From positions 24,244,001 to 24,308,000 of the forward strand of contig NC_087245.1 of assembly GCF_037042905.1 (NCBI RefSeq): a stretch of 64,000 nucleotides of DNA. The letters run 5' to 3'. Position 1 is the first letter of the stretch; every line of letters starts with the position of its first letter. The notes beneath the pieces are model-generated. The model was not told the origin of the DNA. It saw only the letters and a list, made by a program, of their open reading frames with translations, and did not search any database. The DNA is from Lytechinus pictus. Its lineage: Eukaryota. The translations under genes and the position numbers were made by a program. Shown here one piece after another: positions 537 to 48,329 of the stretch.

Positions 537-787
537 TCACATATGCGTTACCTTTCTCTTTTTGTCTGTATGCGCCACCCTACTTTCCGAATTGCTGAGG
601 GCATCTTCAAGGAAATTCAGCAACTCAATACTTTTTTCTTCATCTTCCAAGCAATTGTTTTTCGTGTAATTTTCGAAAAAGTACACGTTCTCATTTACAT
701 CTTGGGTAGCAAGTTCTGTTTTGATGTCGTATCTTTCCGATTCGGTAAGCGATGCTGCATGGGTAATAACGATCATTGGGGGATGAC
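537..787 (-). CDS. Exon 10: GTPase G4/G5 region and C-terminus, truncated relative to the paralog
   Basis: HPPMIVITHAA...VYFFENYT...EEKSIELLNFLEDALSNSE...KVTHM*. Acceptor cattccag; TGA at 537-539. Confidence 0.85.
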
Positions 788-3700
788 CTGGAATGAGCAT
801 ACACAAAAACACTAACTTTGTATTTCTAGAAATCATAATTACCCATTTCAAACTTTTCTTTCAGACCAATATTAAGAATATCTAATAATGATAATAATAC
901 ACAGTTCTCGTGTAATAGAAACATGCCTAATGCCTCTACACGCTACCAAATATCCTCGGTGGCTGTTTCATCACGCATCAATCCTTCCCAAATTGTGAAA
1001 CTATACTAAAAATCCATTAGCCTAGGAATAGTTTATTGAGAAAATAATGAAAACAAATACATGTATCTGTAAGCAAAATTAGATAACATTTTGTTATCTA
1101 ATTTGAAAATTGTGTCAATAAATCAATAAACTTAGTAAGGAAGCATAAATGTTTACAATGGTTTCAGCACACGAATTATTCCCCTCACGTGAAAGTCCTT
1201 AATTCAAAGGCCGCTCAAGACATTTTGACAAAGACACTTGAGTATCGGAATAATGCTGCCAAATGATAATTTCCTCGATGTTTGTTGAAAAAAGTTATGT
1301 TATGTGTTTTAAGGGGAGCATAGTTTTATCATGCTACAAACAACTTGATGCTTATTTATAGCCAAGTAGACCTCATTGCTTATTTATAGTCAAGTAGACC
1401 TCATAATTAAGTCGATCATTAACATCACATCTTGTCGAATAATCACTGAGGTTGCTCGAAACCACTGTGATTACCTTTGCCACCCTTTAGTGAGATTTTT
1501 ATAAGATCTTATATGTGATTCATGAATGAGATCCAATCATCTGCTGGGCTAATTTTGCATTATCGGCATAATTTGTCTGCTTGTTTTGAGGCGGGGCAAA
1601 GAAGCAAATACATTTTGAATGTCATATGCCTCAACGGTTTCAGGGTGTCGAGAGTAACAATACCATACCGGTAAATTGCCAATTCGTCTACTGCCAACTC
1701 GTCCACTCACGACATGGTCTACTTTCATTTAGTCTTATGCCATTCCGTCCATCAACATTTCGTCTAACAACCATTTGGTCCATTAACCATTTGGTCCAGT
1801 CATCACTACGTCTAATCACCATTTCGTCTATGACAGTTTCGTCTCATAACCAGTTGGTCTAATATCCATTTCTTTTTCATTCATTTTGCACAATTCAAAA
1901 CTTAGTCCAATGAGACCACATGGTATATAGACTAAATGGCTATTGGACCAATTGGTCATTAGACGGAATGGCATTAGACTAAATGAAAATAGACCATGTG
2001 GTGAGTGGACGAACTGATGGTAGACCAAAATAATGATAGTAGACGAGTTGGCAATTGGACAAATTGGCATTAGACGAATTGGAAATAAACCTACATACCA
2101 GTGTGTTGCCTGACCTCTTTGGTGAAGTCCCCAATGAATCCAAGTCCGTATTGCCAATTGAATGGACTAGATGAAAAAGAAATTTTTTGTAATACAAATA
2201 CTTTAGAATAGAATGTATAATCTCAAAATCGGTTTACGGTACACCCTGAGTCATAGAAGGACTAAGAAAAGTGGATAGAGGTAGAAGTGAAATAGAAAGG
2301 CGAGAAAGTGGAAGATTAGAAAGTAGAGTATCTTTCTGAAATGAGGGTAGTACTTAGTTAGAATGGCTGTAAGCCAGACAAAAAAGTTGAGAGGCTTGAG
2401 TATAGTTAAAGAGATGAGAGAAGGCTGGCTTGAGTCGGCAAAATGAGTTGTAAAACAGGAGCAGGAGAGAATACTTTGGCAGGTTGACTGTCGACGTTTT
2501 CGGGCAGTCTGTATGTCCGTCTTAAAAAGTGACGGACAATCAACCTGCCCGAATGTCGAGTCTTCTCTCTTGCTCGATCTCAATGAACTTTCAAGTATGG
2601 GGAGGTGAGGGGATGTTAGTGTAACAATTTGAAGAAAAGGGAGGAACAAGAGTATCAGAATGAGAACAGTGGGTCGTTTAACCTTCTAATATCTTATCTG
2701 ATCATTCACCGTTTTTACCCAATGCCGCAAAAGGCCCAAATCAATAGATAACAAATATGTGAAAAGAAAATTATCAGTATATTGCACCATAAATTGTCGA
2801 ATTTCTACAATTCAACATAATTTAACTATGTAATTGCACTTACAATGCTCCTTTACAAAATCAGTAAAAAAAATTGTTGTTAATGACGGGGTGGGCGGTG
2901 GGTTCATCGGGGTTATGTGAATTTCAACGCACATTAGGCCTATATATAAGACATATTAAATCTGATTCTCTATTTGTAGCCTATACAGGGGCAGATCCAG
3001 CCTTCGCCAATAGGGGGGGGGGGCGGAATTTTTTTCGGCCATATTTTCCCCGATCGGCCGCTCAAAGATGATTTTGGTTTTTTTGAAGAGGTAGTCCTCA
3101 TAGTCACTTCTCAGTTTTATTCTTATGATTCAACATAAATATATAATATCATAATCCTTGTTTATACAATGCGAGCGCGAAGCGCGAGCTAATTTTGTGT
3201 GTGGAAATTGTATGTACTTTTTCCTAATATTTGAACATTCTGGGCAATGTTTCTTATCCTGTAAAAGATGCAACTAAAAGTGTATCCAACTAAATAATTA
3301 CTACGAACGCGAAGCGCGAACAGAAATGAACTGATGAAACAGGTACATGTTAAAGACTGTTTGTAGTTAGCCATGAAGACGTTACGTATTTTAAAAATCA
3401 AATAATGCGAGCGCGAAGCGCGAGCTGAAACATTTTGACATCTCTACCTACAGAATAAAAATTCTAAGCACTTTTATAACTTAAACATAATAGGTATATA
3501 ACTAAACAATTAATGCGAGCGCGAAGCGCGAGCGGAAAAATTTCGAGATTTATACCTAATGAACGAGACACTCTATTCATGTTTTGTAAATCATATAAAG
3601 GATGAGTTCTTGGGGATCTTCCTTACATCAATAATGCGAACGCAAGGCGCGAGCAGAATTTTTTTATATGTATACGTTTTGAACTGATCGAAAAGGTACC

Positions 3701-6700
3701 TGTTAAGACTGCTTGCACTTAGCCATAAAGACGTTACATATTTCAAAAATCAAATAATGCGAGCGCGAAGCGCGAGCTGAAACATTTTGACATTTCTACC
3801 TAAAGAATGGAAAATTTTGATCAATTTTTTTCATCGTGAACAGGATAGCTATGTAACTAAAAAAATCATGCGAGCGCAAAGCGCGAGCAGAAAAAAAATC
3901 GAGATCTAGACCTAAAAACGGGACACTCTATTCATGTTTTGTAAATCATGAAAAGAATGAGTAATAAGGGATCTTCCTACTTTAATAATGCGAGCACAAA
4001 GCGCGAGCTGAAAATTTTTGATATTGTGGCCTGAAACTGGATAATGATTTAAAAAGAGAACAAGTTGAGTATCTGAATAAACATACACGCGTGTGTTTCA
4101 TATTTAGACCTAGATTCTAGGCAATCTAAATACATCTTTTATCATGATAATCAAAGCGAGCGCGAAGTGCGATCTTAAACTATTTGATATTCCCACTGAA
4201 AAAAAGAGTCAATTTCTGCTCTATATTTCAAGCATTTTGTAGTACAATTGTGAGGTGGATATGGATCGCACTTAATAAAGATCTGATTTGTTCCATTATT
4301 ATTACTTTGAGTTTCGACATAGGACCAGTACATCCTTAGGACATGTCATCATATGAAAATGATGACTATCTTCATATTCCTCTTGCAAAGCGGAGATAAA
4401 ACAAAAGGGACAATTTAATTTCTAAATAAATATTTTATTCGTTAATGCACTAATGAGGGCGCAAAATCTGATGATATTATGGCCTAAAAACTGGACATTC
4501 CAAGCACTTTGTAATCATAAATAGGATGCATCAATTAATATATTTTTAACCATTAATGCCAGCGCAAATCGCAAGCCAAATATTTTGATAAACTGTCATG
4601 GAAAGAGGATTTTAAGTAGTTTGTTGTATAATTAGTATTGAGACATACATAACTCGCCAATCAAAATGAGAGCGTGCAGCGCCAGTTGATACGTTTTAAT
4701 AATCACACCTGAAAAGGAATATTTTGAAACTTTATGCAATACAAGAAAATAATAGGTACCTGGTAAATCAAACTTTGCGAGCGCGCAGCGCGAGCAGAAA
4801 ATGTTGATATTCAGACCATAAAACTGACATTTTTACAGAGCACTTAAAAAAAATCAATTTGTAAATCACACAAAATAATGAAAGTTCGATTTCCGAGGTG
4901 AAATATGTTTTGTATATTGACTTCCAAACTTGATATTTAAGTTCCATAATGAACAAGATATGAAAATCATCTAACAGGCAATGCAAGCGCGAAGCGCGAG
5001 CGAAAATTTTACATAGTGACATGAAAGATTTTCCAAGTCTTCCCCTCATCTTAGTACTTTATTAATTCGTCTTCCTCCTCTCTTTTCTTTCTTTCCTTTT
5101 TCCTTTTTTTGTTATTCTGCCCCTAGGGGGGGGGGGCCGCCCCCTGGATCCGCATATACTAAGTTGAAGTATAGGAGGCCTTTCGAAATTGACATAAACC
5201 TAATATGCTTAGATTCTGATATAGGTTGAAATTGACTTACGACTTCTTGTACACGAATACAGCACAATGTATTTCTTCCTGTTCACATGCCTTGATTTGT
5301 TCTATGTCTGGCCCGCGTTCTCCACCTGCCAGTATAATTAATGCAGTGATAAATGTTTCTATTTTATATATAATTCTTAATCGGATTGAAATAAAATATA
5401 AGGGGAAAAAATCCTTTCTTGGTTAGAAAAATAAAATATTCGGACTTGCATGGTCACTTAGTTTAAATCAAATATCAGTTTAAAAAAAGTACCTGTGTTA
5501 ACCCCAAAAAGGACTGGGCTATTTGAGATCTATTGAGGACGGGGGGACATGATGCCCACCCCCACCCCATTCTAATCTCGGCCGCCGTTCGCGCGATCGC
5601 GCCGAAATTTGGCACGCGCATTATTTATCGCATAAACTATAAGCCAATAAAAAAGTCTGAAGATAATCACTTTTTATTTATTAGGAATAAAATACCCAAA
5701 TTTATTCGTGAAAAACATTTTGTGCATATTTAACACCCAATTTCACTTCAAATTTGTCTTCCCTTTTTGCCAGATATTATCTTTGTAAGCTAATTTAAAG
5801 GTTTCCGCAAAGAAAAATTGCGAAAGCTAATTTTTTTTCCTTATGTATTTCTTCTTTTTCTATTTATTATGTATTTTTTCATCTTTTGTTTTTCGTTTTT
5901 TCAATGGAAATTACTACAGACCATTTAACAACTAAATTAAACCCTAAATTAATTAAGCAAACCAATTAGAACGAGTAAAATAATAACTTTTTATGAGATT
6001 TATCTCCCATAGACTTTGTAAACAAAGTATAAATATGAGCTAGTTTCGGCATGATATTGTCCCGTTAAAAGTCATATGTCTTCGCGATGCTTTCCCCGTA
6101 TGTCGCAAATTTGGTCTCGAAAGGTGCACGAGACTACAAAGAAAAAAGTCATGAAATTTTGCGGCGCTATGTTTTTGCGTTTCGGAAATATCGCGCGAAG
6201 CGTTGAGGAGAAAGGGCCATCATGCCTCCCAGTCCTTTTAGGGTTAAAGCTAGGGTGTACTTCATGAAGTAATGAAGAATTAGCAGAATTAAGGGGGGGG
6301 GGGGGGTCATAAACTGGAGTCATGCACCACAATTAAGAAATATTTAGCTGAACTGAAATGAAAGAATCATGAAAAATAAGGATCAGTAGAATATGAGATC
6401 AGTAATGGCAAGACATGTATTTTGTTTTGTCTCGCCCACTCATTTTTTTGTCTCGCCCACCAGAGGTGAAGGCGAGACTTAGGGATCCAAATGAACTCCG
6501 CAACGGTAAGTCACTTTTCAACCAAACTTGGATGGTAAATGTACTTAGGGGACCTGCATGTTATTCTGCAGTTGGAGGTCACATGGTAAGGCAAAGTTCA
6601 TTTTCAGGCTCTGGCGTATATCCGGTCCAAGCTATGGGGGATGGGGTGAAAGCAATTATATTGATCTGAAAATTTCAGGCCGACGTTAAAGTTTAGGTGC

Positions 6701-9700
6701 AAGACTCTCTTGTGACACAACTCTTCAACCATAAATCACTTTTCAACCAAACTTGGGTTGTTGATGTACTTAGGAGAATTGCACGTCATGGTGCAGTCAG
6801 AGGTGACATGGTAAGGTCAGAGATCATTTTCAGGTCAACATTAAAGTTTACGTGTAAGACTCTTTTATGACACATAACTCCGCAACCGTAATTCATTTTT
6901 CACCCAAACTTGGGTTGTCGATGTACTTAAGATACCTGCATGTTATGGTGCAGTCGGAGATCACATGGTACACCCTAAGAAATTCGGGTTCAATTCTACA
7001 TCCCTAGGGGTGCACAGGCTTGTCCCTATACGAGTACCCCTAGCGGTGCACACGTACACCCCGAATATGGGTGTACGTACAGTGTGCACCCCTATTTGGG
7101 GTGACCATCTGCACCTTAGAGGGTGTACACGTCTAGCCCTTAGGGTGCATAATGTACCCCCACCTGAAATAACAAAAAGGTTGTCGAGACTTCCGGAACA
7201 TTAATTCACTTTCTGTATCGATTTTAGTTACCCTAGTTGGGATTCGAACTCACCTCGTTTTATGTGTAGTCAAGATAGCGATATGATCCGATAATTTTTT
7301 GACTTGTGCTGATAGTTGTGATTCAAGTAGCTCTATTTACTAATTCTCCAAAAGTATACGTAATCAAACGTGTTTTTGAAACAATTATCATCACATAAAT
7401 AGTAAATATTAAAAAAATTATTTCACTTCGGTAAAGTGTGGCGTAAGTGCATTTCTATTTCGGGTAATCTTCCATCATAAATCAACTCTATCTATACCAT
7501 ACGTCTATCCGCGAGACTGGTGGGGTTCACGCAAAGAGGACATGGGTGTACAACAGACACGGACTCTCGCATAAGAGCTAACTTGCACCTCGATGGTATT
7601 AAGCGGTGTACGCACGTATCGTACACCCCATTTGCACGGGGATTTTTTAGTGTGTAAGGTCAAAGTTAAAGTTTACATGCAAGACTCTCTTATGACACAC
7701 AACTCCGCAACTGTAATTTATTTTGCACCCAAAACTTGGGTTGTAGATGTACTTAAGAGACCTGCATATCATGGCGCAGTCAGAGGTCACATGGTAGGGT
7801 AAAATGTCATTTTGAGGTCATTATTATGACATACCTCCACAACCGTAAATCACTTTTGAACCTAACCTGGGTTGTAGCTGTACCTAGGAGACCTGCATGT
7901 TATTGCGTACGGTCAAAGGTCATTTTGAGGTCAACATTATAAAGTTTTAATACGTGCAAGACTCTTATGACAAAAATTATTCCAGCCCAGTTATTTTACA
8001 ATGAACATTTAATACGATTCTGTTGCGTGCCCTCGATATTTATGGTTACTTTCACAAGTGGGCGAGACACATCATCGCTTATGCCTTGTTTTCATAATGG
8101 GACTTTCACAATTGCTCGTGCGATCGTTTGCGATCACTTGGTCCCAACATATGTTGCACAGAATCGCAACGGTTGTAAGCAGTCGCACCACCAATTGTGA
8201 AAGAGGCTTAACCCATTACCACAACTTGCCAACCATTTCCCTTGACTTAGCCTTTAACTCGTGCCACTTAACATCGCACGATTTAATAAGCCCCTTTCAC
8301 AATTGGTCTGCAACCATTGCGACCTTTTAGTCGCATGACAAACTGCAACAAGCATCAATCGCTATCTATCTCATAAGATCGCAGGAAGGCTTTCACAAAT
8401 ACAACAGCTGTCTTACAACAAAAGCGATTGGAACGCCGTTGCACGAGTAAGTCGCAATTGCTCCCATAAGAGTGGCTGTGCGTTCACATGCGAGTGTTGA
8501 CGAGTGATTGCGAGTGATTTTACGACCAATTGCATTGAGTCGTGAGAGTTGACTCGAGGTAATGTCATCGCCAGAACGATTGAATGAAACTGTTGCGAGT
8601 GTTCGTGCGAGTAATGTGAGGTATAAAACCTCCCTTAACACGAATTTGACATCAAAAGGCACAAATAAGACGAAACTATTAGATGAGGACCCCGAGAACG
8701 TTCGAAGCTCATTTTAACCCCCTATGTAGAACCCCGAGGAACGGTCGCATACATTCGCCGTAATTGATCGCAATATGATTGCCACGACTGATTTGATATG
8801 ACCTGATACGATCACTACGATTACGCCATGATTGATAGCACAGTTTTAATCGTGGAGCGAATCGTGAAAGTGGGAATTAGGTATGTCTTGTCGTGATCGG
8901 TCGTGGAACGATCTCATGGTCTATGTATTATCTCGCCCAGTCGCAAGACTGGTCTCTATGTCTGTATGTAGGTCGCTTGCGCACGTGCAAGTGTTGCACG
9001 ACCTTCAGTCGCGACCACTTAGTCGTGCCAACTCTCGCATTATTTCATGCAGCTTTGAACACTACTTGCACGACATTCGGACGACTGGTCGTACGATGTG
9101 ATGGAGGCGAGTCATTTTGATCGCGTTTGGATTTTGAACATGTTCATATTTCAGATGGGACTAATCACGACCACCTCTGGTTCGACTGGTCGCCTACAAA
9201 GACACCAAGCGATCGATTGTGCAACACTGTGAAAAGCAACGTTGCAGGCGGTCGCAAACTGATCGGGATATTGTGAAAGGGGCTTTACTCGTCCCATCGA
9301 GTAATAAGTTGAAGGAGTGCATTCATGAGTTGAACAACCGAGTTAGCATGTCATGCCCGATGTGCTTATTAGTCGACTTACGCTGTTACTAGTTGTGATT
9401 GATTGTCACTCTCTCAAGAAACTAGTATTCCGACATTACAATAATGGTTGATCTGTCAACACTGACTGCAGATATTGCTATAAATCAATAAAGTGACGAT
9501 CTAAAGATTTAATTAAAGGATAGTATAACTTACGAAGCTGAGCAGTTACTTCAGTCAGGTAATCTTTCTGGAAGTCGGCCATGCCTCGGTTGTCGAAAAT
9601 ATGAATGCTCTTAGTGAGCTTTAGGACAGTGCGTGCAGTGGTTTTTCCTCCACCAGATTCCTTGTCACCAACCACCTGACTTTCTTTATATTTGCCTGTT

Positions 9701-12700
9701 GATGAGAAGGGGAAAATCCCTTAATTTGGCAAAGAAATGATATGTTTCAGATCGTTGAATTTAACTGGGTAAATCGCAAAAAATATGGCCAATACCATTA
9801 CGCATTCATTTTCCTATTGCTTAATTTTAGTCATAAAGATCACCATCAGGGCCCCGTAATATGACACAAAGGTTTAATAGCGATTAAAGGGATGGTCCGG
9901 GCTGAAAATATTTATATCTAAATAAATAGAGTGAAATTCACAAAGCAAAATACTGAAAATTTCGTCGAAATCGGATAACAAATAACGAAGTTATTGAATT
10001 TTAAAGTTTATCAATCTTTTTTTAAAACAGTTAAATGTACATCGCCATGAATATTCATTAGGTGGGCTGATGATGTCACCCCACCACTGTCCTTTTTCTT
10101 ACGTTATTACATGAAATGATAAATGTTTCATTTTTTTCATACATGTGTAAAAGATGTGTATCCATTATGATGAAATAAGTTGCGGCAAAAAATAACTAAT
10201 GCACTTAATCAGTTGTCAATCCAACTGTTTTTAGTTCTTGGTAGAAATATTTTGAATAAACCTAATTTTGTATAATAAAATACAAAAGAATAAGTGGGGA
10301 TATGACATCACCAACCCAACTAATGAATATTCATAAAGACATGCCTAGAACTGCATGTTTCACCGGAATAATACAACTCTTTAAAATTCAATAACTTCGT
10401 TATTTGTTATCCGATTTTGATCAAATTTCCAGCATTTTGCTCTGTGAATTTTACTCTATTTATTGAGATATAAATATGTCCAGCCTGGACCATCCCTTAA
10501 ATCGTTAAATGAAATAGCCTATCAAGATCATCGTTGCATGCGCATTTCGCTCAGGAGACTGACTGGGAAACAATCAGAATTGTTCTTCCAAATTAGCGAT
10601 CAATCGCTAATCTTCGTGTTACGGGGCCCTGGTATATTAAATAACTTATGTCATTTATACAATCATACTTGTGTACAGAGAAAAATAGGAAAATATGTTC
10701 ATATCAATATTCTGATAAAGAAGATATTTGTTTTACATGTATGTAGAGTGGTCAATAAGTTATACTTCAAACTGCTATGTCCCTTTTGCCTCAAGAAATC
10801 ATTGAAGATTCTTTCTATTACCCTTAAAATGATTTTTTTCAATTTCTTTCTTTCCTTCTTATTAGTTCGCGCCTTCTTTTTTAATAATATGCCATAATGA
10901 TTGTAAGGCCTTACCTGTATATGCAAATTCAAGAGAATTTATGAAGGACGATTTTCCCGCACCCATTTCTCCAAACAAGCCGATGTGTGCAGACTTCACA
11001 TCGGATCCATCTCGCTTAAATTTGAAGTCCAGTAAACGTTTACGTAGATCAGCCAATTCTTCCTTAATATTTTCTGAAATGTGCAAAAGGGTCTTCAATT
11101 AAAAAAATAATGATAGCGGAAAGATGTTCATCAATGAATACTTAATATATTAGTAACATTAGTCAATCAAAAGGTCATTATTGCATTAAAATGGCAATCT
11201 TTTCAATTTTTTGTTGCATTTAAGCTTTGCAATGATTTGAATAAGATTAGGCTTATGAAATTATTATCCGCTCTACTACCTGTTAAACATCTGAAGAAAC
11301 TTGGAATTCGGACATTTACCCTGAAGCTATTATAGTTCTTGAAGTATCATTTACCAGGGAATCAAATTATCCAGCATGCATCCACCAAAATGAGATTTGC
11401 ATGCAAATACTCACGTAATCTCACTTCTTCTGGATCTGGTACAGGCATCGAATAGACTGATCTCAGACAAGGAATGACATTCAAGACTGCTTCACCTTAA
11501 AATAAAACGAAAAACAGGGGGTCTTAATTTTGTGTTTTTTACGGCAGATTTGCGAGTTGGTGTCTACTATAGAGAAAGGCATAAGATCTATGTGAATTTT
11601 CTAACAAGGTCTTAAGGCCTGGTCTCACTGGCTGACGGATACAAAACGAATTCATACAGGACACAGCGGACGAGCAAAATTTCGCGGGTGGATCCATCCG
11701 ATTTTCATCCGTTCCTGAAATGGACAAAGTTGTCGAAAACACAACGCAAAAGAACGGACATGGGTGGTATGTAGCGCGGATGTTAAACGGTTGTTCATCG
11801 GAACCTTGCGGATGAAAACGGATTGAAGCGGATGACAGCTCCAAACGGGTAACCGGGGGTTTTGAATACTTTATTTACGAGATGCATTCGCTTACATCCT
11901 TTTCTATTCCCGTGCTACTAACGATGTATAGACGTTCCATGTTCCTTATCTTTCCTCCCTATTTCCGCAGTTCAGCTTCATTGGATCTGATGCAGAGAGG
12001 ATACAGCAGATGCTTCACGGATGATAACGGACATGAAACGTTTGTTGCTCGTATATGTTGCGGATCTACATCATATCGGCGGGAAGTTCATCCGTTCAAG
12101 GCTTGGTCCCACTGCACTTACGAATGCAGAGATGATGTAAAACGGAAAAGTCTTGCCATCCGCTGGAAAACGTTTACGGTTATGTATCCGCTGTGTACTC
12201 TTTGCATACGTGTTTCATACGATCTATATCCATCGAGCATCCGTTCCCCCGGAGATTTTATTGTTCGCCCATTTAGTCTATTGTCTGGAGCGGATAAAAA
12301 ACGTATGGAGCATTGTTAAGCCCCTTTCACAATTGACGTATGACCAGTTTACGACCGCCTGCAACAGTTTTTTCTTGTTGTTGCACGATCGATCTCTTGG
12401 TGTCTTGCGAGCACTCGCAGTCAAGAATCAATCAATCAATCTACCAATCAACTTAAGGTGGTCATGACTAGTCGCATCTGAACTTTGAACATGTTCAAAC
12501 TCCAAACGCGATCAAATACGATCGATTCACTCGCATCAGATCGTACCATCGGTCGGGCGATCATCATGTGAGTGTTGTTCAACGTTGCACGACTTGATGC
12601 GAGAGGTTGCATAATAGTCCAGGATAGGCCCCATAGACAAGGGGTCGAACCTTGTTTTTTTAGATATACAATGTTTTTGGATGGTTTCTTGTCAATTCGA

Positions 12701-15700: not shown

Positions 15701-17926
15701 GTACCAACGCGCATACATACGCGCACCTAGCTCATTGCAGATTGGCTGACAGCCCATTGGAAGCCCCAAGCTATGACTGCTATACTACATTGCTCTGAGT
15801 TCGAATTGGTCTTATACCTCACATCAATCACTCGAACACCTGCACTGGTTTCATTCAAACGTACGAGCAATCGCATATGAAATAACTATATGGACGGATG
15901 CTCGATGGATAGAGCGTAACACCGTATGCAACAAGTACACATACAACGGTTGTATAGCGTTTTCCAACGGATGGCAAGATTTTATTTACGCTTTACATCC
16001 GCTTTGCAGTGCAGTGGGACCGTTCGTTTAAGCCCAGCGCACTACGCGATCCGATATGACACGATTTTTGCTTTTTAATAAATCACATTTTACATTAAAT
16101 ATGAAAGTTCCAAGAAGTGAAATAATTTTATTTGAAGCTCGGCATAATATTAGGAATAATGAAATCATATTTTTGATTTGCGGCAAGCCCTGTGGTCGGA
16201 GTAAAGTCCAAATCGGCTTCAAGTTGCAGCCGATGATGACGTCATTACGATTTGGAATCGAATTTTGTTTTATTCCTATACAGGGAGGCTCGAACTAGAC
16301 TGAATTTCGATTTCAGTAGTCCTACCCCTATTCTGAACTCTGATCGCTAAGATTTTATTGGATGGGATAACCATATTAAATGTTATTACAATTTCTTCGG
16401 ATCGCAACAAACGCATAGAGCGCTCTGAGCATTAGGTCTTAAATCCTTCTTTTATATAGACCCGGCCATTGCAAATGGAATTTTAATCATAGTAGCAAAA
16501 CTGATTTTGGTTTAGGAAAAAAAAATACGAGAATGGGGAATAAGTAAACAGTGTATATTTGAGAAATGAAGCAAATGCAAGTGATAGTCAAGGCAACAAA
16601 GGACATATGTCATGACTTTTCATCGTTGCCTTTGTTTGAGGGCAAAAAAATATGAAAAAATAACTTGTATAACATCGATTGTAAAATGGAATTCAATCAT
16701 AGTAGCAAAAACCATTTTGGTTAAAGAAAAAGAATAGGAGAATGGGGAATAAGTGAACCGTGTATATTTGAAAAATGAAGCAAATGCAAGTGGTAAATCA
16801 AGGCAACGAATGACATATGTCATGACTTTTCATCGTTGCCTTTTATTTGAGGTCAGAATTAATTTAAAAAAAAATACTTGTATAACATCGATAGGATGTT
16901 GTCCTAGGTTCACAAAAAAAGAAAAATATCATTTTGAATTTTGAGTTTAGCTTTGAACATGATTACTCTTCTTCTTCTATTTACTTTTTCTTGTCATTAT
17001 TTTGCTTTTGTTTGCATTATTATAAATAAAGGAGACCTTTACCGTGTTTACAGTCTACTTAAAATTCACGTTGGTATATATAGAGTGACTACAAAGAGTT
17101 AGTGATGTAGACCTACGTACATACAGCTTAAAGTTTTTCTATGTTAAATCTTTCTCCAATCATCTCAGATTTCTTAGGAGCTTTCTCTGTTTTTATGTTG
17201 ATTTCTCTTTGATAAGTAATATGAAATCAAATACCTAGGGGCGGTAGTTTTTTCTTCCTCCTTAGAACCAGCAAAGTCACAAATAAAGCGACTATTCCAA
17301 TGGCTATCAATAGCAGTATAACAGAGATATATATCGCAACCTTGCCTCCGACCCATAGTCCACTCCTCATAGGTTCAACGATCACTGCATCAAAGAAAAA
17401 AAAATCAAATTGAAAATAATGTAATAATAATCATTTCAGAAATGTAAAGAATAGTATTGACACATGGTGTGTTTTGAGTATGTTAACTTTCTTTCGAAAT
17501 TTAGGGTTTCTCTTTTGGGTGCGATATCCTACAGACTGGTTTATTTTTTAGATTCAATTGTTTTCCTCCCGTCCAGCTTTCCTTGTCTGCTTATTTCTTT
17601 TTAAAATATGGGCCTCATCCCTAGCCAGTAATCAAGCAGATTGAGAACTCGATTTCCAGGAGGCAAGGATCCATACCTGAACTAGATTTTATTTTTGCAT
17701 TCGATTCAAAGAGCTCGATGGTAACAGGAACATTTAACCCGTAGTCCTGGGCTTTCATTTGGACAACTCTAGTCTATACCAAACTATTAAAATAGTTTTT
17801 AATAAAATTTTTAGCCAACCCTGGCCAACATGCTGCCCACACATCTATTAGTTAAAATATGCCAAAACCGGGAATAAAAACTAATAATTGGGTAATTAAT
17901 TTGCTCAATTGGATAATAATCGCCCA

Positions 17927-17970
<44 letters not shown>

Positions 17971-20900
17971 ATGAATTTTTGTATGAATTTGTTGTGAATC
18001 AATATTTAAGCATTCTTTGACTATTCTTCATTATTGATTTGATTATCATTTGATTATCATTTTCTTTCCGTGACGGGGGACATACTTCGTTATTTTATCG
18101 TATATATATATGTGTGTGTGAGAGAGGCGTGAATATAATAGTACCAATCGCTTTGATCATTGTATATATTATGTGTGAAGAGTAAAGTAGAATCAAGGAT
18201 GAAAGATAGTATACACTATGTTGTAAAGCTTTCGGCCTCGACCTTCTTCAGTTTTAATTTGCTAAACAAAACAAATAAAGCAAATCATATATATATATAT
18301 GTATATATATATTTTTTTTAACCAACATACATTAGCCAACACAGGGGACAGTATCCAGGATGTTGCCCAACATATTAAGTGTGCATCCTCAAGTAACATA
18401 AAATGGCAACATGAAAATTATTGTTAAAGATCAATAATGACTTCCTCATATTTTCATAACTTCCTCAAGAGTTGAACTTTTGCTTCCAGTTTTTTTTCCT
18501 TTGTATTTTTAAAAGCAGTTCTATCCCGAGGATTTTCAATCCCTTTTTAGCTGGTGGGTGTTTCATAAAGCTGTTTGTTAAAGGTCAAGTCCACCCCAGG
18601 AAAATGCTGACTTGAATAAATAGAGAAAAATCAAACTAGCATAGTGCTGAAAATTTCACCAAAATCGGATGTAAAATAAGAAAGTTATGACATTTTAAAT
18701 TTTCGCTTATTTTTCACAAAACAGTGATATGCACAACTAGGTGAGTCAGTCGATCATGACCATTACTCACTATTTATTTTGTTTCGTATTGTCTGAATTA
18801 TACAATATTTCGATTTTTACAGATTTGACAATAATGGCCATCTTGAGTGAACCTTAAATTGTTTAAACAATAGAAATTTCATTATTCAGTGAGGAATAAA
18901 ACTTTGTTTCGCAGGACAATGATGAGAAAATTATAATAATTCATATTTCATATAATAACATTCAAAAGAAATAGTGAGTGGATGACGTCATAGTCTCCTC
19001 ATTTGCATACCAGCCAGGATGTGCATAATATAACTGTTTTTTTAAATAAAGCGAAACTTAAAAATGTCATAACTTTCTTATTTTACATCCGATTTTGATG
19101 AAATTTTCAGTGTTATACTTGTTGGATTTTTCTCTTTTTATTCAAATAAACTTTTTGTTGGGGTGGACTTGTCCTTTAAGTTACGAATGATTCTGCGATA
19201 ACTGGTTACACGATCTAAACGATATATCAATGTTGTAACCTAGCACGTAAAAGATGTTCAAGTCGTGCGTAACTTAGCGAACATCTTCTTGAAACACCCA
19301 CCAGGCAATTTATTGTTCCATATACCTGTCGACGGAGGTGGAACCAGCACAGTAACGGTTGTTGACATGTCAGTGCCATTGGTTGCATTGCCCCTTACCG
19401 TACAGGTGAAATTCTGTTCTTCGTCTTCTTTAGCAGCCACAGTGATGGTCGCCTCCTCTTCAGATCTACCATCGGGCAATGTCATCCGGGATGGATTTCC
19501 AAGGGGCTGCTTCACTTTACCCGATGACGTCCATTCAAGCGTTACATCGGGTTTGAAGCCACTGACAACACATTCCAGGTTAAAGGGATATGTGTTGGCT
19601 GCTTCAACGATGCACAGATGTTGGTGTGGGTTATTTGTTGACTGAGGGACACAATGTGTTACCTGAGGCATTGATGGAGATGCTGTGTAATGGAAAATAG
19701 ACCGAGTTTCGAGAAACAGTAAGTACAAGAAATTTCGTTTACTTGCCGTCATTCCCAAGATTATGTTACATATTGACCCAGTACACAGAAAACGTATCTG
19801 TATTAACCTATACCTTTGGGACGCCATTAAAAGCGTTTCTTTTTCTCGCTCTAAGGTGGTATAGCCTCTCTAACTTCTTATATTCTAAATCTTTAAAAGT
19901 ATTCTGGATAGATGAAAATGTCATCCGTTATTTTGTTAGAGGTTTATTTCAAAAGTGAAAACCCGGGCGCCCCTGTTTATCAGCCCTCCCTTCCCGAAAA
20001 AAAACCTTAATCGGCTGACTATCAAGTATGCACACAGTCGACTACTTACCGTAGATGGTGAGTTCAGAACTATTAACGTAACCATCTCCTGAATCAAGTT
20101 CTAATGTGCAAGTGTATTCTCCTTCGTCTGACACCGTTAAATTCAGGATATCGACTGAATAGTCACCATTCAAACGAAACCTTTCATCGAAGCTCACAAG
20201 TTCACCTTTGAAATACGATACTTTTGTTTCACCAGTGCTGTTCGTCCAGTACAATGCAAGGACATCCGTGTAGGGGAATTCACATGGGAGACGTACCGTC
20301 TCACCAAACCATCCTATTGCATGTTTTTCTGTATATACCCTGGCCAAACAACCTATGAAAAAAGTGAGAGGAGAAAGGTGATATTGAATTCTAAATGAAG
20401 AGTCATTGACTATTATCATTGAGCAAAACGAAATGATTCATTGAAAGTGCATTGTTTGTAAGTTAGGTCTATTTTTTTTAATGTATCTTGTCAGAGTCAA
20501 GACATCGACTTGAGTCAATGCAAGAGTATTTATTGGACTCACTGATAACACTTCAAGGAGCCAAATTGCTTCTATCATGCATGGCCGAACAATTTAGCCA
20601 TGTCTGAAAGAACTTATTAGCAAATATATATTGTGATGGCAACATCATACATACCACTATATAGATCATGAGCCAGTTTTGAAACTTGCTGACTTTGGTC
20701 GGGAGTTTTCTTTTGGGTTACAGTAAATGCATGGATTCTGATGATTGACTGACTTTTTCTACTTTATCGCCCTTTTACTTTTAGGCTGTATCTGTTGAAG
20801 GTAATCCAATAGAGCTCTTACTAATCAATATTGGACCCATTACGGATATCGTTTCTTTCATTTTAAATTGAACTAACCAACAATTCAATGTCTTGATGAG

Positions 20901-23900: not shown

Positions 23901-24292
23901 AAAATAAAAATATTTGTCACTTCGGAACCGTGGTCACGGTTCTCTCGAGTTTGGTCTCAAGACTTTCAAGAAAAGAATTAAATTAAGAATTGTGACAATG
24001 AGATCATTTTGCAATGCAAAATTATCATATGAAATATCGAGGAGTGTACACGTCGAAGATAATTGAGAAAACAAACTAAGATTTTAATGATAAAAAAAAA
24101 ACTAATTCGTAAAAGAGGGAACTTTTATTTGGTTCCCTTACGTTATTGAGGTCTGTAACCGAAACAACAAAACTATTTTGTTTCCTGTGGGATTTTTTTT
24201 TTCTTTATGAATATTATTCTGTTATTTGTTCACCACAGAGACCTTGCATCGATTATTTTTATTATTAAAAGGTACAAGATGAAAAAAATATG

Positions 24293-24329
<37 letters not shown>

Positions 24330-25845: not shown

Positions 25846-25882
<37 letters not shown>

Positions 25883-28800
25883 AAAGATGCGTTGCCAACA
25901 AAACTATTTGTGATTATATGTATATGCGCTGCCAAGATGGAGGAAGCGCACTGTAAAAGACGCATCTAAAGACACGTTGCCAACAAAATTATTTGTGATT
26001 ACATATATACATAATATATGCACGCTCACCAAATACACTAGCTTACACAATTGCATCCCAATAACAATACTTTCTCTCTTTCACTCTCTCTCCCACTATT
26101 TCTCTCACACACTCTCTTTCCCCCTCCGTTTCTCGCTCATGACTATTAAGATCAAAAGCCAGGAGAGGAGATCGAAAAGAATAATCACACTATAAATGAA
26201 ATAGTAACATATACCGTGTGAGTAAAAAAAAAGACACCTCACAAGTCCCCAATTTAAGGAAAAAATATGTCATGAACACATAATTATTATATATGGCCTG
26301 AAAATGTATGTTCTACCAAACAATTTGATACCATATTCATGTGGCATGTGCTAACGCTTAGATGATCAGAGGGGTTTTCTTTGCAGTGATGCAAAATTTT
26401 TTCTGCGCCAAAGTGAGGCATGACAGCAATGAATGAATCCAGTTGTCAATGATGCCATAATGTTACAAGGGCTGCATTAAAATCCGTTTCAAAATACCTT
26501 TTTAATAATTTGCTTTATAATTGTTTAATAAACACTTTTTAATATCAATTCTTAAATTAATTTCATTAAAAAAGGATTTGCAAATATGTTTACAAAATCA
26601 TGTATTATGACATCACTATTTGCATCTGGATTCATTCATTGCAGTCACGCCTTTGGCGCGAATCAAAATTTACATCACTGCAGCAGCTAGCAAAAAATAT
26701 CTACTGATCATCCATGCGTGAAGACATACCACATAAATATGGTATCAAATTAGTTGGGAGAAGATAGTCTTTCCAGCCACAAATAATTATTATGCCTTCA
26801 TGATATATTTTTCCGTAAATTGGGGATTTGTGAGGTGTCAAGTTTTTGTTTTACTCACACGGTAGTTTAAACTGCAGCTTAATTGGTTTAGACCTACATC
26901 ACAAGAGGAATCTGCAAATTACTTACTCATTCCAAGCTCATGGTAAGCAATCAGGAATGTGATCAGATAATCAATACGCAACTTTGCTCTCATTTTCTGT
27001 TCACTTTTACGCTTTTCACCTTCAAAATTATATCTTCCAAACAATTAACCTGTATGCATATCATTTGGGCACGCCACATCAATGTGCGTCGCACGGAACC
27101 TTACGAACATTCAACACTAGCTGTAGATATAGAAGACAAGGTCAAAGGGGACCGGGGTTTCCCTGCTTCGAACATTCGCACACTTTTGGAGTAGAGTTAA
27201 AACGTACCGCGAACGCGGGTGCGTGCATGCATGTGTGAATGTGCATCAGAGAAGGGCATGAAAACTAAACATGAAAACTAAACATGAAAACTAACTGGGT
27301 ATAATTCGAATGGTGAATTATAGATAGAAGGGGAAAAAACGGTTAGACCAGTAGGCTTATTCTTCTTTTACTGGTTTCAAGTATGTTTTTACTAAGCGGG
27401 CCAGTTGATTTTTAACTGGACCAGTATAAACCAACTGGAAAGCAGTACCTCAAGTGCATACCAGTTCAAGATAATTAGTAATACCAGCTATATTGTTTTC
27501 ATCAAACTGGTGTATGCTGGACCAGTATGACCAGTATTTTGTTCTACTGGTTTCAATTTACATTTTTACTTGGCCAGTTGATTTTTAACCGGACCAGTAA
27601 AAATCAATTGGAAACAAATTCCGTCAAATTGATACCAGTTCAAGAAAAGTAGTAATACCAGTTAAATTGTTTTCATCAAACTGTTGTCTGCCTGGACCAG
27701 TTTGGCCATTTTTTTTTTTTACTGGTTCCAGTATATTTGCACTGGGCCAGTTGATTTAAACTGGACCAGTAAAAATCAAGTGAAGACCAGTTATATCAAA
27801 TATATTGTTATTATCAATTATTGTTATCATTACTATTGTTATTATTATTTTCAATATTATCATTAATATGTTCATGAGTATTTTGATAATTATTTTCATT
27901 TTAATTATCGTTATGCTTAAGACATAAAACGAGATATATTCCCCTGATAAGTCAGCTCGTCTAATCTCAGTTCTTGTTTTAAATAAAATCTCGTCATGAC
28001 TAGTAATTGCACTAGTAGATGCTGCTGATCACGTGGTTTGCCTCATTTGCATATTTACATTTTTTTTGCCCCAAAAACAGTATTTAGAAAGAAATATCCA
28101 TGCAATGGCACTCATTGTTTTTTAACATTATAGATAAATGTGTGAACTAATTCACAATGAAAATGTGTAATTTTGCAATACAAATTTTTAAAAAAGCAGA
28201 AAGATTCCACAGCAAATTCACCAATCATGATATACGTATTACAAACTAAACGCGAAATGCCAGTGACGCCAGTAAGACCAGTTGAGTTTGATACCAGTAT
28301 ACACTTTACATCATCAGCATGATCACTGAGGCCAGTAACAAACTCCAGTATTCAAGACTATATTAAAATTCCACTGAAAAATTAACAGGAGACCAGTAAA
28401 TATAGACCAGTGTTACATACCAGTATAATTTTAACTGGACCAGTATGACATGTATGACCAGTTAGAGCAGTAAACAGATGTTCTTAATTCCAGAGTTACC
28501 AGTTGATTAAGCTCTCCCCTATCTCCATCTCTCTCCGTCTTTCTCTCTCTTTGTTTTTGACTTTCTATCTACTTGACTTATTTTTAGTATCTTTCATGGC
28601 TCACTTTGCCATCATTAATGTGTTTTTAAAAGTTATGCGATTTAAGAGATTTATATTTTATACCGTAAATGTAGAATGATATATGATTGTTGTGTGTGAG
28701 GAAGGTGAGCTTCTGTGCACTTGTATTAATAATAAAGCAAAAATAAACAAAATGCATAGTAGTGTTCATTCAACCTGAATATTTTAATATACCGTTGTTG

Positions 28801-30243
28801 TTGTTTTTTCGAGTTAAATTGACATTGAAACCTGTTTTAAAGCAATTAATAATAGAAATTTGAAATGGCTCTTCAGATTTGTATAATCTTCTTTAAAATC
28901 TTAACAATAACCGATTATGTACTAAATCAGGTTACAATTTTATTGTATTAGGTGTTTTACTGCAAACTGTGACTGTTGATCAATATGTCAATTATTATGA
29001 TTTATTCAAGGAAACCTACATAAACAACTCAACCATTCAAAAGCAGGGGCGGATCCAGGTTTTTCCAAAAAGAGAGGGACCCACTTTCCCGATAAAATCA
29101 GACAACCCCCCCCCCCCCAAAAAAAAGGGTTTCCACCTAAAATTGAAGGTATTTTACTCCGCGGAAAATCTGACAAGCAAAACAAAGGTCCTCACGTTCA
29201 AAAGGGAGGGGGGGCATATTTACATTACAAATTTTGATTATGGCTCTCAAGGGGGGGGGGGGGGGGCACGACCGGCCGTGCCCCTTTCGATCCGCCAGTG
29301 TTCAAAAGGTTTCCTTTCCATTTCGTTATGGTATTTGGTATTTTGCCTTGCTTTGTAAGTTTGAGGTTTGAAAAAAAAATCGAAACAAAATTTGGACACA
29401 ATAAATCAGTCAACAAATCAATAAACCGCATTCAGAAAGATTCACGTAAGTTTATAGAATAACGGTGGTATTATATAATATAGAGAGAACATAACTTTCA
29501 TTTCCGTGCTGCATAATGATAAGATACAAAAGCAGAGGGTTTAGTGATTTTCAAGACGGTCTTCTGTCTATATTTTTGCTTCCTGTAACAAATTAGAAAT
29601 ATATGAGATCCAGGCTAGGACCAATAGAAAATGGACCTAACGTTGTTTCAGATAAATGTATGTTTGTTTGTTTTTAGGTTTTTTGGGGGGAAGCAGTTTT
29701 GCATAACTGAACAGGCCTATACCCTGCAGCATAAAATAAAGAAAACCAATAAAGAAATAAATAATAAATAAATGCTCTTGATGGGCAAGTATACAATGAC
29801 GCTCTCCGCCGTACGCGCCACTGTGGGATCTATGCACTAGGTGGAAGCCCCGCCCCCATCCCTCCAATACAACAGCAAAACGTCGACCGTTTTCTTTACT
29901 CGAAAACCATCACCCCTCCCTTCCCCCATTATCTCAAGACCTATGGGATTCGGATTGCAATGTTATTCGCTATAAAAACAAGTAACGCGAAAGGAGTAAT
30001 GAATGTACACGTCGGTTTTAATAGCTCACCCGATAACCCAAGTATCAGGAAGCTAAATTGGCTTGCGAAAACTAATTCGACTACACACCTATGTACCATT
30101 GACAAAACATTAATGACTCATTACAGCACTTGTTCAACCAAAAACAAATTAAACGTCAGATATAACTTACCTCTAGTAAGGAAACATACTAACAGCAATG
30201 TGCTCAAATGGTTAAACCAAGATGCTTTTCCTATTTCATCCAT
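537..30243 (-). CDS. Spliced 10-exon gene (562 aa): signal peptide + IgV + IgC-type + TM + IFI44/IFI44L-like P-loop GTPase
   Basis: Exons 30171-30243, 20050-20352, 19326-19682, 17235-17384, 11415-11495, 10915-11073, 9534-9695, 5241-5325, 2099-2166, 537-787 sum to 1689 nt, one open frame ending in TGA. All introns are GT..AG; intron phases are 1,1,1,1,1,1,1,2,1. Linkage of the Ig/TM half to the GTPase half is inferred from phase compatibility, not from transcript data. Confidence 0.8.
1669..2091. mobile_element. Foldback/MITE built from short tandem motifs
   Basis: Ends ggtaaattgccaattcgtcta and tagacgaattggaaataaacc are inverted. Absent from the paralog at 60265-60272; tac is duplicated at the site. 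Confidence 0.8.
2099..2166 (-). CDS. Exon 9: PFNWQYGLGFIGDFTKEVRQHT
   Basis: Acceptor ttttcatctag, donor TG|gtatgt; 68 nt, phase 2-1. Conserved with identical boundaries in the paralog at 60274-60341. Confidence 0.85.
2986..5156 (+). mobile_element. ~2.1-kb non-autonomous hAT-like element with repeated gcgagcgcgaagcgcgagc motif
   Basis: Ends caggggcagatccag / ctggatccgc; reverse-orientation copy at 30679-32579. No clear TSD. Confidence 0.75.
5241..5325 (-). CDS. Exon 8: GERGPDIEQIKACEQEEIHCAVFVYKK
   Basis: IHCAVFV matches the IHC-hydrophobic strand typical of IFI44-like GTPases. Acceptor ctggcag, donor TC|gtaagt; 85 nt, phase 1-2. Confidence 0.85.
5502..6243. mobile_element. piggyBac-type MITE
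   Basis: TTAA|ccccaaaaaggactggg ... cccagtccttttaggg|TTAA. Confidence 0.8.
6443..8092 (+). mobile_element. Helentron-associated (HINE-like) element with internal tandem repeats
   Basis: T-run then gtctcgcccac...ggcgagac at the 5' end, subterminal gtgggcgagac near the 3' end, terminating in cttgtttt; internal repeats contain ggtcacatggtaaggtca. Confidence 0.6.
6971..7654. mobile_element. CAC..GTG-ended MITE (CMC/EnSpm-like) nested in the HINE-like element
   Basis: TA|caccctaagaaat ... attttttagtgtg|TA. The host motif cacatggta-aggtcaaag is restored on removal. Confidence 0.7.
8288..9285. mobile_element. TIR element (Harbinger-like termini)
   Basis: aagcccctttcacaat ... attgtgaaaggggctt. A related interrupted copy lies at 12318-15325. 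Confidence 0.7.
9534..9695 (-). CDS. Exon 7: GTPase G2/G3 exon
   Basis: KYKESQVVGDKESGGGKTTARTVLKLTKSIHIFDNRGMADF... has a G2 Thr candidate and hhhhDxxG (IHIFDNRG). Acceptor catcaacag, donor C|gtaagt; 162 nt. Confidence 0.88.
9888..10497. mobile_element. Kolobok-like MITE nested in a short MITE (9847-10631)
   Basis: TTAA|agggatggtcc ... ggaccatccc|TTAA. Host ends are cagggccccgtaa / ttacggggccctg. Confidence 0.75.
10915..11073 (-). CDS. Exon 6: GTPase G1/Walker A exon
   Basis: NIKEELADLRKRLLDF...HIGLFGEMGAGKSSFINSL contains GxxxxGKS followed by SFINS, as in IFI44-family proteins. Acceptor atttcag, donor AG|gtaagg; 159 nt. Confidence 0.9.
11415..11495 (-). CDS. Exon 5: juxtamembrane linker EAVLNVIPCLRSVYSMPVPDPEEVRL
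   Basis: Acceptor ttttattttaag, donor C|gtgagt; 81 nt, phase 1-1, no stop. In-frame ATG at 11448. Confidence 0.72.
11615..16022. mobile_element. Nested Harbinger-like non-autonomous elements in intron 4
   Basis: Left ends aggcctggtctcactg (11615) and aggcttggtcccactgcac (12099); right end gtgcagtgggacc (~16021). Contains further insertions. Confidence 0.55.
12615..15217. mobile_element. 2.6-kb foldback transposon with long TIRs (Academ-like, non-autonomous)
   Basis: TAA|tagtccaggatag ... ctatcctggacta|TAA (3-bp TSD). TIRs exceed 300 bp; internal ~190-bp repeats carrying aaaatggccgcc invert near 14150. Confidence 0.85.
17235..17384 (-). CDS. Exon 4: transmembrane helix and basic stop-transfer
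   Basis: Not in the supplied ORF track in this frame. Manual translation gives IVEPMRSGLWVGGK-VAIYISVILLLIAIGIVALFVTLLVL-RRKKKLPPL. Acceptor tttgatgcag, donor AG|gtattt; 150 nt, phase 1-1. Confidence 0.88.
18582..19175. mobile_element. Kolobok-like MITE nested in a short MITE (18551-19304)
   Basis: TTAA|aggtcaagtccacccc ... ggggtggacttgtcct|TTAA. Host ends ctggtgggtgtttca / tgaaacacccaccag; an uninterrupted host-family copy is at 44874-45054. Confidence 0.85.
19326..19682 (-). CDS. Exon 3: Ig C-type domain with short Pro/Ser/Thr stalk
   Basis: FNLECVVSGFKPDVTLEW...ATITV...QNFTCTVRG...TTVTVLVPPPST; sequons NFT, NAT, NGT. Acceptor acacag, donor AG|gtatat; 357 nt, phase 1-1. Confidence 0.88.
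20050..20352 (-). CDS. Exon 2: Ig V-type domain
   Basis: GETVRLPC...LYW...RF...DYSVDILNLTVSDEGEYTC...ELTIY shows the B-strand Cys, C-strand Trp and D-x-G-x-Y-x-C motif. Acceptor tttcatag, donor G|gtaagt; 303 nt, phase 1-1. Confidence 0.9.
22100..23130. repeat. Tandem array, ~230-bp unit, ~4.5 copies
   Basis: gcacatggaccc-like motif recurs near 22109, 22333, 22570, 22799 and 23037. Confidence 0.8.
25061..25850. repeat. Tandem array, 198-bp unit, 4 near-identical copies
   Basis: tgctcgttttgcag recurs near 25061, 25259, 25457 and 25655. Confidence 0.9.
26214..26862. mobile_element. Tc1/mariner-type MITE
   Basis: TA|ccgtgtgagtaaaa ... ttttactcacacgg|TA with long imperfect inverted arms. Confidence 0.85.
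26927..26993 (-). CDS. Candidate alternative exon 1b: leader MRAKLRIDYLITFLIAYHELGM(S)
   Basis: ATG in aaaATGa context at 26993, basic N-terminus then YLITFLIAY, donor GA|gtaagt, phase 1, in frame with exon 2. The hydrophobic core is weaker than in exon 1a. Confidence 0.5.
27138..27163. promoter_or_regulatory. Candidate promoter module: AAGGTCAAAGG + NF-kB-type site GGGGTTTCCC
   Basis: GGGGTTTCCC at 27154-27163 lies ~160 nt upstream of the exon 1b ATG, with the same motif order and near-identical spacing as 30408-30434. Confidence 0.45.
29044..29300. mobile_element. hAT-type MITE
   Basis: 8-bp TSD ttcaaaag on both sides; ends caggggcggatc / gatccgccagtg. Confidence 0.85.
30171..30243 (-). 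CDS. Exon 1a: signal peptide MDEIGKASWFNHLSTLLLVCFLTR(G)
   Basis: ATG at 30243, hydrophobic core LSTLLLVCFL, strong donor AG|gtaagt, phase 1. Joins exon 2 to give ...TRG-CLA, a plausible signal-peptidase site. Confidence 0.72.
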
Positions 30244-48150: not shown

Positions 48151-48329
48151 TACATATTAAATAACTTTTATGTTAATGAAACCTCTTGGAAAAAGTAAGA
48201 GGAGGCATTGCTCTGCATGTCGCAAGCAATTACATTCGGGCACCTTAAAACATAGTCCCGCAAGAGCCTGTCGAAGGTACCCCACCCTTATCCGAAGCTT
48301 GACTATTAAAATATCTTGCCTTTTGGAGC

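Follow-up and report, generated by a model that had tools for sequence, protein, structure and literature searches.

Gene structure at the locus and its predicted product

We analysed a 64,000-nucleotide (nt) stretch of the genome of the sea urchin Lytechinus pictus (NC_087245.1, positions 24,244,001 to 24,308,000; the whole stretch is called the window below), the minus strand of which carries a gene of ten exons between positions 30243 and 537. We read this gene, with high confidence as far as the architecture is concerned, as a member of an apparently undescribed sea-urchin family in which a predicted immunoglobulin (Ig) ectodomain is followed by a transmembrane (TM) segment and an intracellular GTPase-type domain. 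The ten minus-strand exons are real: 9/9 introns are of the GT-AG type (end phases 1,1,1,1,1,1,1,2,1), the joined exons form a 1,689-nt frame encoding 562 amino acids (aa) and a stop, and this translation is identical at 562/562 positions to RefSeq XP_063954878.1 (P0005), titled 'uncharacterized protein LOC129264846'. An earlier note, made from the letters of this DNA, had joined the same exons into one frame with two Ig domains bearing six N-glycosylation sequons, a 26-residue hydrophobic helix followed by RRKKK, and a set of named P-loop-domain motifs; each of these elements was recovered, and every one of the motifs was located in the protein. The features of the window are as follows:

30171..30243 (-): exon 1, leader with predicted signal peptide, aa 1-24; matches XP_063954878.1
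20050..20352 (-): exon 2, IgV domain, C48-C106; Pfam V-set; 97/98 identical to the tandem paralogue
19326..19682 (-): exon 3, domain of IgC type (C163-C219) with two further cysteines, C136 and C149; Pfam C2-set_2 and C1-set
17235..17384 (-): exon 4, stalk, TM helix V260-L285 and RRKKK stop-transfer; hydropathy, AlphaFold helix 257-287
11415..11495 (-): exon 5, juxtamembrane linker; missing from the P0018/P0020 subfamily
10915..11073 (-): exon 6, the GTPase domain's N-terminal helix together with the G1 P-loop (G356-S363)
9534..9695 (-): exon 7, G2 (T393) and G3 (DNRG 409-412)
5241..5325 (-): exon 8, IHCAVFV strand, common to IFI44-like proteins (IHCVVYV)
2099..2166 (-): exon 9, helix preceding G4
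537..787 (-): exon 10, G4 (THAA 488-491), ENY (518-520) and C-terminal helix; early stop
26927..26993 (-): candidate for an alternative exon 1, running from an ATG to a phase-1 GT donor and sharing the frame of exon 2; tblastn 91% to residues 1-23 of P0008
58825..60341 (-): last two exons (60341-60274 and 59219-58825) of a tandem paralogue of 609 aa (P0006), whose other eight exons lie outside the window
48278-51870, 46958-48151, 42791-43294, 25053-25850, 22166-23130 and 12614-15218: satellite-like arrays (units of 210, 163-192, 42, 198 and 228 bp) and palindromic repeats resembling miniature inverted-repeat transposable elements, all of it common repeat material without long open reading frames

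The domain order of the 562-aa protein is thus predicted signal peptide (SP), IgV, IgC, TM segment and GTPase-fold domain. The signal peptide is suggested by N-terminal hydropathy and by its own leader exon, and a hydropathy scan finds a hydrophobic N-terminus in most homologues. The IgV domain matches Pfam V-set at E 1.7e-11 to 1.3e-10, and the four IgC cysteines (C136, C149, C163 and C219) are all invariant in 9 aligned sequences. The ectodomain carries six sequons (N62, N95, N118, N216, N224 and N227), and one more, N519, is on the cytosolic side. The 26-aa hydrophobic run reaches a best 19-residue hydropathy of 3.31 and is followed by RRKKK at 286-290; the TM helix is also present in the full-length AlphaFold model, which has a predicted local distance difference test score (pLDDT) of 64.4. 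The best Pfam match of the cytoplasmic P-loop part, RsgA_GTPase (E 2.2e-5), falls under every Pfam cut-off, and hence databases label such proteins only as Ig or uncharacterized.

The candidate exon at 26927..26993 is homologous to an alternative leader that RefSeq gives for the tandem paralogue (P0007/P0008), and a further match to an alternative first exon lies at 20820-20840 (-). The matches at both sites concern P0007/P0008 and an older model of the window gene (P0001), and they may represent alternative promoters or leaders.

Evidence for a single fused gene, and its tandem paralogue

The Ig-TM exons and the GTPase exons might alternatively belong to two adjacent genes, one for an Ig-TM protein and one for a soluble GTPase, misjoined by gene prediction. 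In keeping with this, the RefSeq records are computational models, the fusion in the window copy is known from genomic sequence, intron 4 is 5.7 kb long with 8 AATAAA words, and soluble members of the clade are present in the same genome. We nevertheless regard such a misjoining as very improbable on several counts. The same fusion is annotated in five species (L. pictus, L. variegatus, Strongylocentrotus purpuratus, Diadema setosum and D. antillarum), so that Ig+TM+GTPase homologues span the three genera Lytechinus, Strongylocentrotus and Diadema, although these annotations are not fully independent because all are computational models. Two Logan contigs, just 1,741 and 1,950 nt long, contain complete intron-free reading frames for an Ig-Ig-TM-GTPase protein of 528 aa (P0018 and P0021; the 528-aa relative is 43% identical to the window protein); given that the related genomic loci exceed 20 kb, we infer that these contigs are spliced transcripts of a relative. 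At a distance of 4.6 Mb, a third locus encodes a single Ig domain with matching intron positions (38-52% identity over the matched exons), and exon order, strand and phases are conserved at three loci. The gene structure is therefore not due to chance, as the tandem paralogue shares all ten exons and the distant paralogue keeps the intron positions. Furthermore, there is no Met between M311 of the linker and M358 of the P-loop from which the whole domain could be started separately at exon 6. Together, the RefSeq identity, the homologous fusions and the conserved intron positions bear out the earlier reading of a single fused SP-IgV-IgC-TM-P-loop gene. A search of sequencing runs for the window gene listed none recorded as RNA; it gave 19 runs whose type was guessed or missing from the record (shares up to 0.59), and three raw RNA runs were included on the strength of their species label. 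None of these served as evidence.

Exon for exon, the tandem paralogue follows the ten-exon plan of the window gene, and its exact translation is RefSeq P0006. Comparison of the two copies yields a ratio of non-synonymous to synonymous divergence (dN/dS) of 0.49 over 552 codons, which also favours a single gene. The divergence is distributed very unevenly: between the IgV domains 1 non-synonymous change stands against 7 synonymous ones (dN/dS 0.04), and between the GTPase domains 33 stand against 14 (dN/dS 0.62). Small as these counts are, they point to a fixed ligand combined with diverging outputs. Gene conversion is ruled out as the cause of the IgV identity, since the dS of the IgV (0.117) equals the gene average (0.114), and the open frame together with a dN/dS below 1 rules out a pseudogene. 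Exon 10 of the window copy has, relative to the paralogue, a 2-nt insertion that creates a stop, followed by a 20-nt deletion. The C-terminal tail is consequently gone, so that membrane attachment would be by the TM segment alone; the paralogue retains a Trp-rich tail, and the L. variegatus orthologue of the window copy is likewise short at its C terminus. Across the tandem duplication (453-2745 versus 58867-60927) intron sequence is kept at 78-87% identity, and intron 9 of the window copy, unlike that of the paralogue, has an inverted-repeat element of ~410 bp (1675-2086) inserted in it.

The cytoplasmic domain and the extent of its family

A 64-sequence profile of the family aligns end to end over the P-loop domain with the fish IFI44-like protein P0153 from Halichoeres trimaculatus (HHalign 98.6%, 234 columns, E 5.5e-16). 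Conversely, P0153 is recovered by the family profile at E 2.6e-10, and in an Atlas features search the 'interferon-induced protein 44-like' cluster ranked third (0.96). Pairwise identity between the window domain and the domains of the IFI44 branch is 17-24%. Relationships were examined with two unrooted trees that contained no human IFI44 sequence: a quick tree of 111 rows, after removal of 14 isoform or near-copy ids, and a careful tree of 49 chosen rows. In both, nine IFI44-branch domains form a long branch of their own without Ig-TM rows (support 99 in the quick and 100/99 in the careful tree). The Ig-TM proteins, along with a few TM-only or domain-only rows, lie on one side of a branch with support of 92 and 90/91, respectively (below the star level of the tool), which, as far as unrooted trees allow, fits a single origin.

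The conserved motifs tell the two groups apart. The window domain shares with IFI44/IFI44L an N-terminal helix, the GxxxxGKS motif, the IHC-V strand, the G4 strand and an NY motif. Its G1 (GEMGAGKS), G2 Thr (Thr393) and G3 (DNRG) do not vary among 9 aligned sequences, the most distant of which is 34% identical. The G3 Arg is present in 17/22 rows of the Ig clade and 70/80 other rows versus 1/9 IFI44 rows, 7/9 IFI44-branch domains having DTMG or DTCG at this position. At G4 the window protein has THAA, in which the Thr is conserved; the Asp of the TKxD found in 9/9 IFI44 rows is missing from its subfamily, and its ENY corresponds to KNY or VNY. A TLDc domain is a further difference in the case of P0153: Pfam detects TLD there and has no TLD match in XP_063954878.1, nor in four other IFI44-branch proteins. 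Hence, a true IFI44 orthologue is ruled out by motifs and trees alike, and the separate branch and the motifs indicate a domain that is IFI44-related and not canonical IFI44. The IFI44-like GTPase of the earlier note accordingly stands as regards kinship (HHalign, profile and cluster) and gives way, as regards identity, to a distinct branch without the G4 Asp. The available excerpt of a 2019 paper describes human IFI44 as cytoplasmic and mentions no ectodomain or TM segment (PMC6712396). Within the Ig clade, P0041, P0044 and P0097 stand together on a sub-branch; their G3 has lost its Asp and reads NYKG, their G4 is degenerate, and they are likely to be pseudo-GTPases.

The AlphaFold model of the domain (pLDDT 89.4) assumes a TRAFAC-type GTPase fold. 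The Foldseek comparison of the post-TM region that the earlier note had proposed likewise retrieved GTPases, with septins and GIMAPs occupying ranks 1-8 (TM-scores 0.45-0.56), and the model thereby suggests a dimerising GTPase subclass. The top VIA-align match was 9edr_G, a small GTPase chain of a tubulin-cofactor complex (Z 14.6), and Toc33 scored Z 13.9 with a root-mean-square deviation of 3.8 over 200 residues. A search of the PDB found no solved structure close in sequence (best E 6e-8, partial).

To delineate the family, a profile of four GTPase domains was compared with 1.84 billion representatives, yielding 425 matches at E<=0.001, the best 150 of which were examined. A TM-like segment shortly precedes the domain in 18 of these best 150 of 425, and 2 more have an N-terminal hydrophobic stretch only, as judged by hydropathy. 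Pfam analysis of 31 chosen matches found Ig domains in 11, of which 10 also have a TM segment, and P0002 and P0020 add two more. All TM-bearing matches looked up by name were sea-urchin proteins (9/9), and a tenth, P0025, matches the third locus of the L. pictus genome mentioned above. As far as these look-ups go, the Ig-TM-GTPase architecture is seen in sea urchins, a narrower range than the invertebrate-wide receptor class that the earlier note had envisaged. A homologue search over proteins of 738-2105 aa only, a range that places 400-740 aa fusions of other phyla outside its scope, found none. In other matches the domain is fused to GBP, TIR or vWA domains. A large unnamed family of IFI44-related DNRG GTPases (with P0033, P0043, P0049, P0054 and P0086 as examples) consists mostly of stand-alone proteins of 250-350 aa, often CaaX-ended. 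NCBIfam and PADLOC gave no match for the window domain; weak P-loop matches in up to 10/64 members were not taken as a prokaryotic link.

In the L. pictus genome, Ig and GTPase exons occur in order on one strand at at least six loci, namely three on contig C1 and three on C8 (at 1.70, 1.77-1.79 and 14.97-14.99 Mb), and further P-loop exons, soluble members among them, lie on C8, C10, C13 and C30. Upstream of C8 P-loop exons, two 10-kb stretches held a reverse-transcriptase remnant and no Ig exon. Two clusters on C8, at 31.0-31.4 and 35.7-36.0 Mb, comprise about nine P-loop exons that belong to the same clade (L004, L009, L044 and L045), in an arrangement resembling an inverted duplication; P0069, which is related to these clusters, has a TM segment and no Ig match. 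Related IgV exons number in the dozens and are clustered on C8, C9, C10 and C11. The current RefSeq models of S. purpuratus (P0010-P0012), named butyrophilin, contain a frame change just before ENY; older models and a Logan protein (P0004/P0013/P0014/P0016) have an intact end, which suggests an assembly indel or an allele.

These data bear on a reading in which the protein is an adhesion or cell-recognition member of the Ig superfamily, as easily developmental or neural as immune, with the P-loop domain serving not as a switch but as a nucleotide-binding scaffold or pseudo-GTPase. Ectodomain sequence matches include SYG-2, roughest, CADM and JAM-A, the strong purifying selection on the IgV would fit a fixed, probably self, ligand, and G4 is degenerate. 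In addition, human IFI44 is reported to act via FKBP5 binding, GTPase turnover not being mentioned in the excerpt available (PMC6712396). We consider this reading rather unlikely in view of the invariance of G1, the G2 Thr and G3, and because the family is expanded and its ectodomains vary from one to several Ig domains, as is often so in immune families.

A survey of C-terminal tails covered 96 non-IFI44 family proteins whose domain reaches ENY. A Cys at position -4 was found in 28/96, as against a Cys frequency of 1.8%, with 15 displaying the strict CaaX pattern, and 9/96 have at least two Trp in the last 15 residues; neither a Cys at -4 nor a Trp-rich end was seen in the IFI44 proteins (0/5). 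On account of the excess of Cys at -4, the family looks membrane-targeted with or without Ig domains. Given these CaaX-like or Trp-rich tails in Ig-less relatives, five of which are fused to GBP domains or lie on that branch, and IRG proteins among the best PDB profile matches (E 4.6e-7), the Ig-TM module could be imagined mainly to target an IRG/GBP-like effector GTPase to an internal membrane (endoplasmic reticulum, endosome or phagosome), with the Ig domains luminal. We hold this to be improbable: sequon-rich, B7-like two-domain ectodomains, such as the one with six sequons here, are typical of surface proteins, and several Ig-TM members also retain the tail anchor, so that the Ig-TM module is not merely a replacement anchor.

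Possible mechanisms and known systems

In light of the above, we tentatively propose an outside-in mechanism, to which as a whole we give a little less than an even chance, in which clustering of a B7/butyrophilin-like receptor switches a dimerising GTPase. A soluble, often tail-anchored IFI44-related GTPase with DNRG at G3 would have been joined, probably once, to an SP-IgV-IgC-TM module by phase-1 exon shuffling. The B7/butyrophilin-like ectodomain could then bind a ligand, cell-surface or microbial, and so cluster the receptors, upon which the G domains would meet beneath the membrane, dimerise and turn over GTP or ATP (the nucleotide being left so broad for want of the G4 Asp); the conserved Arg411 is a candidate catalytic finger. 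The receptor might thereby evoke a local response of the membrane or cytoskeleton during cell contact or phagocytosis. A homodimer prediction with GTP/Mg, in which the alignment was not used, scored 0.00 and is evidence neither way.

Several observations weigh against this proposal. The G4 of the window protein (THAA) lacks the Asp of guanine specificity. More widely, the G4 Asp is present in 7/20 Ig-clade rows covering the site and the G3 Asp is missing in three, and thus some members may be inactive. Many Ras-like GTPases reach Z 12-13 in VIA-align, so that dimerising GTPases are not singled out. A nearly frozen IgV above a diverging GTPase domain is, small counts allowed for, unlike a diversifying pathogen sensor. 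The window copy, having lost its tail, may be a reduced-function copy, and its exon junctions are known from genomic sequence and the RefSeq model alone.

The direction of signalling could also be reversed. Butyrophilins have a folded cytoplasmic sensor domain and an inside-out mechanism, and by analogy the cytoplasmic domain might sense a nucleotide, metabolite or pathogen product and rearrange or pair the ectodomains, perhaps within a heterodimer of the tandem paralogues, so that another cell could read them. Searched with the full model, Foldseek puts a BTN3A1-BTN3A2-BTN2A1 complex first, butyrophilins filling 7/10 top rows; the S. purpuratus homologue bears the RefSeq name 'butyrophilin subfamily 2 member A2'; and the tandem pair combines near-identical IgV domains with diverging cytoplasmic domains, one tail being shortened. 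We nonetheless judge this reading unlikely, as the structural match involves only the common IgV-IgC ectodomain (16-19% identity, in a model of the low pLDDT given above), for which CD80 and PD-L1 score alike, B30.2 is missing, and no urchin counter-receptor is known.

Returning to the outside-in proposal, single-pass receptors with an intrinsic kinase, phosphatase or cyclase are textbook examples, and we know of none with an intrinsic GTPase under an Ig ectodomain. It is conceivable, though less likely than not, that the expanded urchin family constitutes a hitherto undescribed class of single-pass 'receptor GTPases', each with an intrinsic IFI44-related GTPase that its Ig ectodomain controls directly from the other side of the membrane. 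If so, the class would parallel receptor kinases and cyclases; it would also bring to light a sister family of IFI44 that has no name and carries CaaX anchors, and a ligand-switchable handle on the function of IFI44-type domains would be at hand. The natural receptor fusion makes activation of such a domain directly testable by clustering. This matters given that the biochemistry of IFI44-type domains is poorly defined: the GTPase-fold model of the homologous domain contrasts with the 2019 statement, in the excerpt available, that IFI44, despite its GTP-binding domain, is not homologous to GTPases (PMC6712396).

As regards known systems, Toc33/34, GIMAPs, septins, IRGs and GBPs match the window domain in fold at 13-19% identity. 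These GTPases are anchored to membranes by TM segments or CaaX motifs, and those of the septin, GIMAP and Toc types dimerise and turn over GTP; to our knowledge, no membrane-anchored dimerising GTPase with an extracellular Ig ectodomain has been described. Butyrophilins and B7 proteins (BTN2A1, BTN3A1, CD80 and PD-L1), the top structural matches of the ectodomain, share the SP-IgV-IgC-TM layout. However, where butyrophilins have a cytoplasmic B30.2 domain, the window protein has a GTPase-fold domain, in addition to the conserved C136/C149 pair; Pfam found no B30.2/SPRY match in XP_063954878.1, the region being a P-loop fold, and identity with butyrophilins is ruled out on this ground.

No description of the Ig-TM-GTPase architecture was found in a literature search that had the 2006 sea-urchin immune-genome papers and most subscription papers outside its reach, nor any mention of six LOC gene ids. 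The architecture and its family are real, conserved and apparently undescribed, standing in databases under Ig or butyrophilin labels. The novelty supposed in the earlier note holds for this architecture and less so for the general concept, for which there are partial precedents. In the accessible part of one review, sea-urchin IgV-IgC1 putative transmembrane receptors are mentioned without a cytoplasmic GTPase domain being named (PMC3308324); window-type genes may be among those receptor models, in which case a cytoplasmic output is suggested for some IgV-IgC receptors known since the genome project.

An Ig-TM-NTPase receptor with an NTPase of another class has a precedent in AjNLRC4 of Apostichopus japonicus, the closest described case, which according to the available part of its description is a membrane receptor with Ig domains outside that bind microbes and a NACHT domain inside, and which dimerises on infection and drives phagocytosis (PMC8699970). 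NACHT has no match in XP_063954878.1, none of the 73 genome matches listed falls at the window locus, and comparison by eye of NACHT positions with Ig matches established no shared-ectodomain link. As far as that partial account goes, AjNLRC4 and the window protein are alike in being echinoderm membrane proteins that carry Ig domains outside the cell and a P-loop NTPase inside it, and they differ in that AjNLRC4 is longer, with two TM segments and a STAND-class ATPase (NACHT), whereas the window protein has one TM segment and a TRAFAC-type fold. Together, the two offer a hint that echinoderms have repeatedly coupled Ig sensors to P-loop NTPases.

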